A DNA stretch of 43,682 bases from Flavobacteriales bacterium (GTDB lineage: Bacteria; Bacteroidota; Bacteroidia; Flavobacteriales_F; PHOS-HE28): assembly GCA_049290175.1 (NCBI GenBank), contig JBATND010000068.1, forward strand, positions 1 to 43,682. Direction: 5' to 3'. The position numbers and the translations under genes were made by a program. Under the pieces are notes generated by a model. The model saw only the letters and a list, made by a program, of their open reading frames with translations. It was not told the DNA's origin and ran no database searches. Numbering within the stretch: position 1 is the first letter of the stretch; every line of letters begins with the position of its first letter. Positions 18,894 through 20,801 of this stretch are shown one piece after another.

Positions 18894-20801
18894 ATGGAAC
18901 TCACCACCATCAAGTCCGTCCTCGACGACACCGCCCTCACCGGCACAACCCTTACCGTGGCCGGCTGGGTGCGCACCTTCCGCAACGATCGCTTCATCGC
19001 CCTCAACGATGGCAGCACCATCCGCAACCTGCAGTGCGTGATCGACCAGGAGCAGGTGGATGCCGCCACGCGGGCCCGCTTCACCACCAGCGCGGCCGTG
19101 AAATGCACGGGTGTGATCGCAGAGAGCAAGGGCAGCGGCCAGCGCGTGGAGATGCAGGTGACCGCCGTGGACGTGCTCGGCGACAGCGACGCGGAGAAGT
19201 ATCCCATCCAGCCCAAGAAGCACAGCCTGGAGTTCCTGCGCGAGAACGCCCACCTGCGCTTCCGCACCAACACCTACAGCGCCATCTTCCGCATCCGGCA
19301 CCAGGTGAGCTTCGGCATCCACGAGTACTTCGACCAGCTCGGCTACAACTACTTCCACAGCCCGATCATCACGGCGAGCGATGCGGAGGGGGCGGGTGAG
19401 ATGTTCCAGGTAACCACACTTCCGATCGAAAGCCCACCCCGCAGAAGGAGTCCCGACCCGGTTAACTACAGCATCTTTGAGACAGTACAGCACCGCTATG
19501 TGGCAAGTGTCTTGGGCACAATCGAATCAAACTTGGAGGTAGAGGGCATGTCCCAGGATGATTGGAACTTCATCAAGAGTGGTCTAACGACGGCTTTGTA
19601 CACCTCTGCAGATAAGATTGAAGAGTTCAAGCTTGAGTTAGAAGGCATGACCACAAAGCCTGACTACTGGGTTTCGAAGAAGGACGGATGGACTCAGATG
19701 TTCAAGCGCATCCGAGAGCGAATGGTTTCTGGGACTGGACATGGGTGGTCTCTGGAGGAGATTGAGAACGAAGTCCGCGCATTATGTAGGGAGCACGGTT
19801 ACACATTGGCCAGGCGCACCACAAGTGTTGGGGCACAGCTTCCACCCGAAGCGAGTTCATTCCTGTCCTTAGCCTTCTACAACATTTTCGAGATCCTAAA
19901 CCACTATCCCGACTATTCCAAAGACTTCTTCGGCCGCGAAGCACACCTCACCGTGAGCGGCCAGTTGCAGGCGGAGCTCGCCGCGCTGGCGCTGGGCAAG
20001 GTCTACACCTTCGGCCCCACCTTCCGCGCCGAGAACAGCAACACCGCGCGCCACCTGGCCGAGTTCTGGATGATCGAGCCCGAGGCCGCCTTCATGGACC
20101 TGAAGGGCGATATGGACCTGGCCGAGGGCCTCTGCAAGCACCTCATCGCCCGCGTGCTGCGCAACAGCATGGACGACCTGCAGTTCCTCGATGCGCGCTT
20201 GAAGGAAGAGGAAGCCACCAAGCCCAAAGAGCAACGCAGCGAGCTGGGCCTCATCGATCGCCTGAAGTTCGTGCTGGAGAACCCCTTCGAGCGGATCACC
20301 TACACCGACGCGATCGAGATCCTGCTACGGAGCAAACCCAACCAGAAGAAGCAATTCCAGTTCCCCGTGGAATGGGGCATCGACCTGCAGAGCGAGCACG
20401 AGCGCTACTTGGTGGAGAAGCACTTCAAGAAACCTGTGATCGTCACGGGCTACCCCGGCAAGATCAAGGCCTTCTACATGCGCACCAACGGCCCCGGCGA
20501 TTTCGGCTACAGCGACAAAGGCACCACGGTGGCCGCCATGGACGTGCTCTTCCCCGGGATCGGCGAGATCATCGGCGGCAGCCAGCGCGAAGAGCGCCTG
20601 GATGTGCTCGAAGCGCGCATGAAAGAGATGCACGTGCCCGCCGAGGAGCTCTGGTGGTACCTGGATACGCGCCGCTTCGGCACGGTGCCACACGCGGGCT
20701 TCGGACTTGGCTTGGAGCGCTTCGTGCTCTTCGTGACGGGCATGGGGAATATCCGGGATGTGATCCCGTTCCCGCGGACGCCGAAGAGCGCGGAGTTCTG
20801 A
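18894..20801 (+). CDS. asnS: asparagine--tRNA ligase carrying a ~157-aa in-frame insertion
   Basis: From ATG 18894 the protein is collinear with E. coli AsnRS as I recall it (GAGEMFQVTTL, DFFGREAHLTVSGQL, YTFGPTFRAENSNTARHLAEFWMIEPE, GIGEIIGGSQREERLDVL, GFGLGLERFVLFVTG..IRDVIPFPRTP). It is 635 aa long, against about 466 aa in E. coli. The excess lies between TTLPIESPP and DYSKDFFGRE. Confidence 0.9.
   Translation: MELTTIKSVLDDTALTGTTLTVAGWVRTFRNDRFIALNDGSTIRNLQCVIDQEQVDAATRARFTTSAAVKCTGVIAESKGSGQRVEMQVTAVDVLGDSDAEKYPIQPKKHSLEFLRENAHLRFRTNTYSAIFRIRHQVSFGIHEYFDQLGYNYFHSPIITASDAEGAGEMFQVTTLPIESPPRRRSPDPVNYSIFETVQHRYVASVLGTIESNLEVEGMSQDDWNFIKSGLTTALYTSADKIEEFKLELEGMTTKPDYWVSKKDGWTQMFKRIRERMVSGTGHGWSLEEIENEVRALCREHGYTLARRTTSVGAQLPPEASSFLSLAFYNIFEILNHYPDYSKDFFGREAHLTVSGQLQAELAALALGKVYTFGPTFRAENSNTARHLAEFWMIEPEAAFMDLKGDMDLAEGLCKHLIARVLRNSMDDLQFLDARLKEEEATKPKEQRSELGLIDRLKFVLENPFERITYTDAIEILLRSKPNQKKQFQFPVEWGIDLQSEHERYLVEKHFKKPVIVTGYPGKIKAFYMRTNGPGDFGYSDKGTTVAAMDVLFPGIGEIIGGSQREERLDVLEARMKEMHVPAEELWWYLDTRRFGTVPHAGFGLGLERFVLFVTGMGNIRDVIPFPRTPKSAEF

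Follow-up and report, generated by a model that had tools for sequence, protein, structure and literature searches.

Aminoacyl-tRNA synthetases (aaRSs) rank with the most conserved proteins and with those most often inherited vertically, and domain insertions in them are normally ancient and fixed. Lineage-specific insertion domains include the GAD domain of bacterial aspartyl-tRNA synthetase (AspRS) and the SI1–SI3 domains of the β and β′ subunits of RNA polymerase, all of which are fixed over large clades, evolve with their hosts, and have native composition. In-frame insertions in coding genes have also been described for Rickettsia palindromic elements (RPEs) and other MITEs (miniature inverted-repeat transposable elements) (PMC10969869). 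Here, we analyzed asnS, the gene for asparaginyl-tRNA synthetase (AsnRS), on contig JBATND010000068.1 of a Flavobacteriales bacterium (GenBank assembly GCA_049290175.1; positions 1–43,682, the whole stretch being referred to as the window). This gene carries an in-frame insertion in a surface loop of the catalytic core, and comparison with related AsnRSs indicated that the insert would be a retained accessory domain exchanged among lineages as a cassette.

The identification of the gene as asnS, encoding a protein of 635 aa, had been proposed from the letters of the DNA and was confirmed by its open reading frame (ORF), by Pfam, and by a match to a solved AsnRS. Pfam located the OB anticodon-binding domain (tRNA_anti-codon) at residues 21–94 and the class II D/K/N core (tRNA-synt_2) in two portions split by the insert, with the best stretch at residues 343–629; with AsnRSs as its best matches, the protein belongs to the class IIb AsnRSs. 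No Pfam match was found in the 160 residues translated from 19440–19919. The best solved AsnRS (Elizabethkingia; PDB ID: 6pqh; 490 aa; E = 1e-181) aligned to query residues 4–185 and 340–635, and query residues 186–339 had no counterpart in this structure, in which the chain has 4 residues at that point. The insertion had originally been put at about 157 codons; its in-frame, surface-loop nature was upheld, and its size was refined to 149 codons (19470–19916). These boundaries were set by the repeated codons at the junctions and hold to within 3 codons, with approximately 9 nt of ambiguity owing to the repeat. The net insertion relative to the nearest insert-less homologs (485 aa) was 150 aa.

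The insertion site is a surface loop between the flipping-loop strand (EGAGEMFQVTT) and the DFFG...SGQ strand preceding motif 2. The EGAGE flipping loop precedes this site by approximately 14 residues, and the SGQ motif follows it after approximately 17. The native loop at this site comprises 17–20 residues in Bacteroidota-type AsnRSs, reading ..EMFRVSTLD-x3-PP-x6-V-D-[FWY]-x2-DFFG.. in insert-less relatives, and Thermus AsnRS (PDB ID: 5zg8) is essentially loop-free there (about 1 residue); length change is tolerated at this position. The host parts on either side of the insert are functionally constrained: the ratio of nonsynonymous to synonymous divergence (dN/dS) of the flanks was 0.05–0.14 among carriers and the same against insert-less genes. 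Judged by this conservation, they do not represent a decaying paralog.

Next, we focused on whether the insert behaves as coding sequence. The original prediction that it stays open in frame and is probably translated was borne out. The window insert contained no in-frame stop codon, as compared with five to nine in each of the five other frames, and none of 2000 shuffled sequences was open. Across all nine insert DNA copies, the in-frame count was likewise zero versus 4–17 stops per other frame (P of an open frame ≤0.001), and all length differences between copies preserved the frame. In the insert core, the proportion of nonsynonymous differences (pN) was far below that of synonymous differences (pS) in two close pairs: pN was 0.087 and pS 0.595 between the window and a carrier assembly from ENA (ERZ28654080; L001; Fisher's test, 7e-25), and 0.074 and 0.640 between two further carriers, L009 (ERZ28614776) and L004 (JBDTNF01; Fisher's test, 5e-31), corresponding to pN/pS ratios of approximately 0.12–0.15. 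Between the window and L001, change in the insert relative to the host parts was approximately four-fold at nonsynonymous sites and two-fold at synonymous sites. Codon-level purifying selection was continuous across both junctions. The insert is thus almost certainly translated, as judged from its codon-level evolution, and would be kept in the mature enzyme, removed neither at the RNA level nor at the protein level.

The alternative that the insert is an intein or intron, whose removal leaves a normal 485-aa AsnRS, draws on its in-frame position near the active site of an essential gene and on its patchy distribution, all of which recall the intein lifestyle. The first residue of the insert is not conserved (Ser, Asp, Thr, Arg, or Lys), and neither a conserved Cys/Ser/Thr nucleophile nor the WCT set of class 3 inteins was found. 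The insert lacks a terminal His–Asn and ends instead in ..P-x-x-[VI]-D-Y, and the +1 residue is Ser, Glu, Lys, Arg, or Thr, without a conserved Cys/Ser/Thr. Its predicted structure is α-helical rather than the HINT β fold, and Pfam gave no Hint or intein match. As for an intron, Rfam returned no match at E-values up to 1, the predicted RNA folded no better than shuffled sequences (minimum free energy z = +0.76), and the purifying selection through both junctions argues against it. A removed intein or intron is therefore very improbable.

Structural prediction of the insert alone by AlphaFold2 (AF2), using a nine-sequence alignment, gave a predicted local distance difference test score (pLDDT) of 76.6 and a predicted template modeling score (pTM) of 0.73. 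The model has five long helices and, after them, a short C-terminal portion of mixed structure, which bears on the earlier question of whether the insert folds as a separate domain. In a full-length AF2 prediction based on a 17-sequence alignment, the insert was predicted better than the shallowly aligned core. The insert is accordingly modeled as an autonomously folding domain of approximately 150 residues that is acidic and mostly α-helical. A pTM of 0.73 together with purifying selection corresponds to an aaRS insertion domain, in which a unit that folds by itself sits in a surface loop of the catalytic core and would stay in the enzyme. All inserts are acidic, with pI values of 4.9–6.2, and each contains exactly one Cys. 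The conserved columns are located at the two ends (F13 and Y20; G98, C116, G120, Y121, and L123; F146, N148, and F150): the insert starts with the consensus LF-x2-V-x3-Y, and toward its end reads GR-x-G-x-KDL...C-x3-GY-x-LRR, then L-x-F-x-N-x-F-x2-LP.

We then searched for relatives of the insert outside AsnRS. A profile search of 1.84 billion representative proteins retrieved AsnRSs only (P0003 and P0121). Pfam, PHROGs, and PADLOC gave nothing consistent for the insert, Foldseek comparison of the insert model with PDB and BFVD gave no match with E <2, and insert profile scans of metagenome contigs and viral contigs gave no confirmed match. By tblastn, no second insert copy was found in the window or in the 12 fetched loci that the search covered. 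An insert-only word-index search returned nothing, missing even the protein of the window itself, which reflects a limitation of the index and is not evidence of absence. Several candidates were rejected. A PDB profile match to a TAL effector (3ugm; E = 1e-6) arose as a summed-repeat artefact, in which 23 repeats of approximately −1 bit each accumulated on a short "lC..hG.T" resemblance, and matches to PADLOC PDC-M03A and to Pfam WHD_HRQ1 and DeaD_dimer involved only one or two members at E-values of 1e-3 or worse and were inconsistent. Alignment of the insert with an insert-less AsnRS profile by hhalign recovered only the junction motif VDYxKDF, which argues against duplication of another AsnRS segment. 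The searchable literature yielded no description of this AsnRS insertion. Across these searches, the insert appears to be an orphan domain of no recognizable family, as had been suggested before any database was consulted.

An in-frame MITE or RPE was likewise rejected. No inverted repeats were found at the insert ends in the window, and none consistently in two other carriers (L002 and L011); nor was the element multi-copy, being found in AsnRS only among the 1.84e9 proteins and without a second copy in the window or the 12 loci.

At least 12 further Flavobacteriales contigs, each assembled independently, had homologous inserts at this site, and approximately 13 carriers are known. A full-length protein search yielded nine clusters at 90% identity, 632–656 aa in length, that contain the insert (P0001–P0008 and P0010; the site is thus also occupied in P0006 and P0008); all of these long AsnRSs have it in exactly the same loop. 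Approximately 70 further clusters, of approximately 485 aa and with up to 95% identity to the window in their host parts, lacked it, and the insert was thus carried by nine of the 79 best AsnRS clusters. Carrier DNA was obtained from L001, from two JGI assemblies (L002 and L003, one of them a 1.58-Mb contig), and from L009, L010 (ERZ25038561), L011 (JGI 3300048584), and L012 (JGI 3300082540). A pattern scan of one genome per GTDB species added three carriers, L004, L005 (JADJOG01), and L006 (UBA7690 DLGQ01), all labeled as Flavobacteriales bacterium metagenome-assembled genomes (MAGs). The profile search of representative proteins described above added a more distant partial carrier from a Flavobacteriales MAG (P0121), and a search with this fragment matched only itself. 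The element is confined to one clade of uncultured Flavobacteriales of approximately 60% GC, in which an empty allele coexists with at least four to five very divergent insert types.

These data also bear on an assembly chimera or sequencing artefact, for which the probable origin of the window as a metagenome contig and the abrupt change in GC might speak. The same architecture and the same junctions were assembled independently in more than ten samples or MAGs from different projects and technologies, and the inserts keep the frame and evolve under purifying selection. An artefact has a negligible probability.

The asnS of L005 (JADJOG010000054, 395–1309) is broken to an ORF of 304 aa that includes a complete insert; the frameshifts at both ends may be sequencing errors or mark a pseudogene.

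The possible short duplication noted earlier at the junctions was real at the protein level. A V[DN][YF] motif was present at both insert ends in every carrier, and the V-D-Y codons are thus duplicated at the junctions. The carriers share the register PP-x6/7-V-[DN]-[YF], followed by the insert ending in ..[LV][AS]F-x-N-[ILV]F-x-[IV][LIV]P-x2-[VI]-D-Y-x-[KR]-DFFG. At the DNA level, the duplication in L002 is still a 10/11-nt direct repeat (GTTGACTAYGA) with copies 444 nt apart, whereas in the window it has decayed (GTTAACTAC at 19461–19469 versus CCCGACTAT at 19908–19916). Residues adjoining the insert were also linked to its presence: within the close clade, VTTLP lay directly 5′ of the insert in every carrier, and V[ST][TV]LD was present in all of the approximately 70 empty genes.

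To elucidate how the insert and its host gene are related in their histories, we compared the divergence of both. Protein identity between inserts was 24–52% where host parts were 86–96% identical, and nucleotide identity between insert types was 34–55%, as between unrelated DNA. Flank dN from the window was 0.020 for L001, 0.025 for L011, and 0.027 for L010, and insert dN for the same pairs was 0.094, 0.931, and 0.935, respectively. Conversely, the host parts of L004 were the most divergent of all (78–85% nucleotide identity to every other sequence, with 80–84% for the L004 and L009 flanks), and yet the L004 and L009 inserts were 79% identical; the window and L001, with inserts approximately 80% identical, had host parts of 91–94% identity. 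In a neighbor-joining (NJ) tree of the host parts, carriers were interleaved with insert-less genes: P0010 was placed beside P0014/P0015 and P0008 beside P0045, and P0009, P0011, and P0012 fell within the main carrier group. The window asnS itself appeared mosaic, its 5′ host part being nearest to L001 (94.4%) and its 3′ host part being closer to L010 (93.0%), L011 (92.0%), and the insert-less L007 (91.5%) than to L001 (90.7%). Synonymous-codon differences rose from 0.2–0.3 to approximately 0.6 over the insert and were still raised for 30–40 host codons on each side. Neither the clade-wide presence nor the co-divergence with the host that mark fixed insertion domains was found. These comparisons suggest that the history of the insert is not parallel to that of the host gene. 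We rested this argument on dN and nucleotide identity because flank dS is compressed and the synonymous sites of the insert are near saturation; a synonymous clock on a well-aligned conserved block was saturated in the closest pair and could not date the insert types, and a dS-based argument for decoupling was dropped.

An ordinary lineage-specific accessory domain, gained once in an ancestor and then inherited only vertically, with many deletions, very fast divergence in place, and no horizontal exchange, would account for part of this pattern. All inserts are homologous and occupy one site, the common junction motifs and linked flank residues fit a single origin, the majority of carriers are located in a single part of the flank tree, the direct repeats provide a ready route to loss, and, already in the closest pair, amino acid change is four to five times faster in the insert than in the host. 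Purely vertical descent does not readily explain the ten-fold spread of insert dN among pairs of nearly equal flank dN, the similar inserts of L004 and L009 within the most divergent flanks, or the different nearest neighbors of the 5′ and 3′ flanks of the window. Given the dN/dS ratio (ω) of approximately 0.09 for the insert between the window and L001 (NG86; dN 0.094, dS 1.08), it would need a ten-fold rate change in sister lines. We consider this explanation unlikely.

The composition of the insert was examined by a sliding-window scan, in which 19401–19900 was the only place in the 43.7-kb window with a 300-nt GC below 0.52 (minimum 0.497; mean 0.608, SD 0.028). The hand counts of the original prediction proved exact (43.3% for 19561–19620 and 45.0% for 19621–19680 within the insert; 58.3% for 19321–19380 and 70.0% for 19981–20040 in the flanking asnS). 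The GC content at third codon positions (GC3) was 0.62 in the loop and insert of the window versus 0.91 in the remaining asnS, and 0.66–0.88 in the other window genes. A GC3 trough was present in every carrier (0.39–0.62 vs. 0.82–0.92) and spilled approximately 20 codons into both flanks before an abrupt return to 0.9–1.0. The insert had been called compositionally foreign. Its composition is indeed distinct, but the trough persists in all of the divergent types and therefore looks like a lasting regime more than like the trace of a recent import. Close relatives mostly lack the insert and the carriers share the low GC3, which is not the pattern of a lineage-wide domain of native composition.

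The GC3 of the asnS host part exceeded that of every other gene in the window, and its synonymous divergence was two to three times lower than that of the insert of the same gene, indicating strong constraint on codon usage in the host part.

Based on these data, we propose, with a probability of approximately 0.6, that the insert is an accessory domain that is retained in AsnRS without a catalytic role and is exchanged as a cassette through homologous recombination. The shared junction motifs and linked flank residues suggest a single origin. Insert types would then have been shuffled among lineages through homologous recombination in the highly conserved asnS flanks, and loss of an insert would follow either from recombination with an empty allele or from deletion between the direct repeats of 9–11 nt formed by the V-D-Y codons, the latter restoring exactly the empty loop. 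The conserved insert ends would probably act as a stalk leading the chain back into the host sheet. The persistent GC3 trough could result from weaker selection on codons and translational accuracy in a less constrained domain, from an absence of GC-biased gene conversion where alleles have no homologous partner, or from both.

The original prediction had offered two readings, a new domain with an accessory or regulatory role and a new kind of mobile element inserted in frame. The evidence favors a retained domain exchanged as a cassette, and neither mobility machinery of its own, nor multiple copies, nor occurrence in other proteins was found in the searches described above. A selfish, site-specific, non-spliced element that invades empty asnS genes by trans-acting or other homing, with purifying selection merely keeping it harmless, would fit the single conserved site near the active site of an essential gene, the patchy occurrence with empty and filled alleles otherwise very alike, junction repeats resembling a target-site duplication, a composition of its own in every host, and a history decoupled from the host gene. 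The insert itself is a small acidic helical bundle without a nuclease, recombinase, or other enzyme signature. Over the insert and adjoining loci, no nuclease family was found in the insert, neighboring genes differed among carriers, and no conserved neighbor gene accompanied the insert, which speaks against a homing endonuclease. The element is also rare (approximately 13 carriers), none was found in the viral contig scan, and recombination in the flanks would suffice for its spread. Selfish homing is quite improbable on these grounds.

Several points weigh against the cassette explanation. The synonymous clock of the flanks is compressed by extreme codon bias (GC3 0.9), and synonymous sites in the insert approach saturation in all pairs, the closest one included; strongly episodic evolution in situ may be an alternative to a decoupled history. 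The mosaic signal of the window is modest, amounting to 2–3% over approximately 800 nt in an identity comparison, and the comparisons cover 11 DNA sequences, with a flank tree that is a simple NJ tree without support values. Retention in the mature AsnRS is argued from sequence evolution only, and in the full-length AF2 model the core was poor (pLDDT 55.9), too weak to place the insert relative to the active site or tRNA. The account of the GC3 trough by codon selection or GC-biased gene conversion is itself conjectural.

As for function, the conserved ends and hypervariable middle, the acidity, and the position in the loop suggest a projecting interaction surface rather than a catalytic element. 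We tentatively suggest that the insert, next to the entrance of the active site, might add or change a surface with which a partner or an antagonist of AsnRS interacts, and, with similarly low confidence, that it makes no catalytic contribution and encodes no mobility enzyme. Eukaryotic class IIb enzymes carry tRNA-binding appendages; the acidity of the insert argues against an appendage of this kind. A more speculative and rather doubtful possibility is that the insert is a hypervariable, exchangeable "shield" or decoy under frequency-dependent selection from an antagonist that targets AsnRS, such as a protein of phage origin, an inter-bacterial toxin, or a naturally occurring inhibitor, yielding a balanced polymorphism of many old alleles and a null allele, or else the first non-splicing, intein-like selfish cassette. 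Either would, if true, represent a new class of evolutionary behavior for an aaRS.

Against the conservation usual for aaRSs, the AsnRS insert resembles a cassette of the accessory genome in its behavior, although it lies within a core gene: it is present or absent, has several deep alleles, appears to recombine independently of the host gene, and has its own codon composition. If this pattern reflects selection, it points to an interaction or conflict centered on AsnRS. Should the cause be neutral or selfish persistence, the insert would be a natural example of how new domains enter essential enzymes and of how local loss of recombination or of codon selection shapes GC3, and it would identify a site in AsnRS permissive for domain insertion that is usable in engineering.

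Table 1. Coordinates of asnS, its insert, and associated sequence features in the window
Feature	Position	Strand	Basis
asnS, asparagine–tRNA ligase (class IIb), 635 aa with insert	18894..20801	+	ORF and translation; Pfam PF01336 and PF00152; PDB 6pqh, E 1e-181; flank dN/dS 0.05–0.14
Host part 1: OB anticodon-binding domain, hinge, motif 1, EGAGEMF flipping-loop strand, and first half of variable loop (..TTLPIESPPRRRSPDPVNY)	18894..19469	+	Collinear with 6pqh residues 12–197; loop register PP-x6/7-V[DN][YF] as in insert-less relatives
Low-GC island, mainly at third codon positions, the sole one in the window	19401..19900		GC scan; in carriers, extends by approximately 20 codons into the host sequence on either side
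Left junction repeat, GTT AAC TAC (V-N-Y)	19461..19469	+	V[DN][YF] here in all carriers; part of the 10/11-nt direct repeat in L002
Insert, predicted orphan acidic, mostly α-helical domain, 447 nt, 149 codons (SIFETVQ...ILNHYPDY)	19470..19916	+	No counterpart in solved AsnRSs or 485-aa nearest relatives; open frame; purifying selection; AF2
Hypervariable middle of insert (helices 2–4), with type-specific length differences of 15–25 aa	19506..19748	+	Column entropy and gaps highest in alignment A3
Conserved motif CREHGYTLARR (consensus C-x3-G-Y-x-L-[RA]-R), containing the single invariant Cys of the insert	19785..19817	+	C116, G120, Y121, and L123 invariant in alignments A2 and A3
Conserved C-terminal motif LAFYNIFEILN (consensus [LV][AS]F-x-N-[ILV]-F-x-[IV]-[LIV]-[PN]), leading back to the host strand	19869..19901	+	F146, N148, and F150 invariant; entropy lowest
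Right junction repeat, CCC GAC TAT (P-D-Y); [VI]-[DN]-Y in other carriers	19908..19916	+	Junction comparison
Host part 2: SKDFFGRE strand, SGQ, motif 2, helical subdomain, and motif 3	19917..20801	+	Collinear with 6pqh residues 202–490

The neighbors of asnS in the window represent an ordinary Bacteroidota chromosomal context, including DsbA, a LytTR response regulator, and proteins sorted by the type IX secretion system. Directly 3′ of asnS, a gene for an ATPase with AAA_14 and DUF4143 domains (20857–21996, +) was found, which is not there in L001, L002, or L007–L012. In the insert-less L008, a free-standing small GIY-YIG gene (4808–5116; PF01541, E = 4e-15) lies 350 nt 3′ of the empty-site asnS; it was not seen beside carriers and has no evident tie to the insert. 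A conserved helical ORF of approximately 130 aa is located just 5′ of asnS in L001 (320–727), L009 (2520–2903), and L011 (2512–2913), with a weak DUF6483 match in one of them; it was rejected as a partner of the insert, since it is not upstream of asnS in the window.

Other parts of the window contain repetitive and paralogous genes. At its end (41000–43682, +), at least 11 tandem repeats of 237 nt (79 aa), 61–84% identical, belong to an ORF that runs off the window and probably encodes a large repetitive surface protein. An ORF of 1252 aa (3882–7640, +) contains repeats of 201–219 nt at 4268–6296 that are rich in GGNACNAAYGG (G-T-N-G-T-N-G, collagen-like) and ends in a Peptidase_S74 (endosialidase chaperone) domain, a tail-fiber-like architecture in a chromosomal context. 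Six tandem repeats of 69 nt (23 aa) at 15786–16337 lie within a 904-aa ORF (14369–17083, +) without a Pfam match. Three tandem paralogous genes, spaced 1588 and 1719 nt apart, occupy 9609–14571 (+), and the one scanned (9609–11276) contains an FGE-sulfatase-like domain. The 3′ ends (8880–9524, 27522–28166, and 32120–32770) of three ORFs (7687–9543, 26044–28191, and 31488–32783) are mutually 62–80% identical; in the scanned ORF at 26044–28191 (TPR and Guanylate_cyc), the shared 3′ end encodes a class III nucleotidyl-cyclase domain. In L006, a TPR-cyclase gene of similar type was found upstream of asnS.

Finally, we compared the insert with known systems. Like inteins, it is inserted in frame near the active site of an essential enzyme, always at the one conserved position, is patchy among close relatives, evolves faster than its host, and separates filled and empty alleles that are otherwise nearly identical. 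Unlike inteins, it has no splice-junction residues, HINT fold, or homing endonuclease, and is indicated to be retained. With RPEs it shares the appearance of foreign-looking in-frame DNA at a surface position of a housekeeping protein whose function is not destroyed. RPEs are short (approximately 100–150 bp), palindromic, and present in many copies over many genes, whereas the insert is 447–570 bp across carriers, lacks inverted repeats, and was found in one copy, at one site only. The native variable loop of AsnRSs of the E. coli and Bacteroidota type (17–20 residues; absent from the Thermus type) lies at the same location, and its motif PP-x6-V-D-[YFW]-x2-DFFG is kept on both sides of the insert, the loop being expanded approximately ten-fold by a structured domain. 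The GAD and SI1–SI3 domains resemble the insert in folding autonomously within a surface loop of a conserved catalytic core and in being retained. The AsnRS insert lies between motifs 1 and 2, whereas the GAD domain lies between motifs 2 and 3, and in contrast to GAD and SI1–SI3 it is polymorphic for presence and absence, multi-allelic, decoupled from the host-gene tree, and low in GC3. From approximately 13 sequences of uncultured bacteria, what appears to be new here is an aaRS domain insertion that combines an orphan fold with unusual, cassette-like population behavior.

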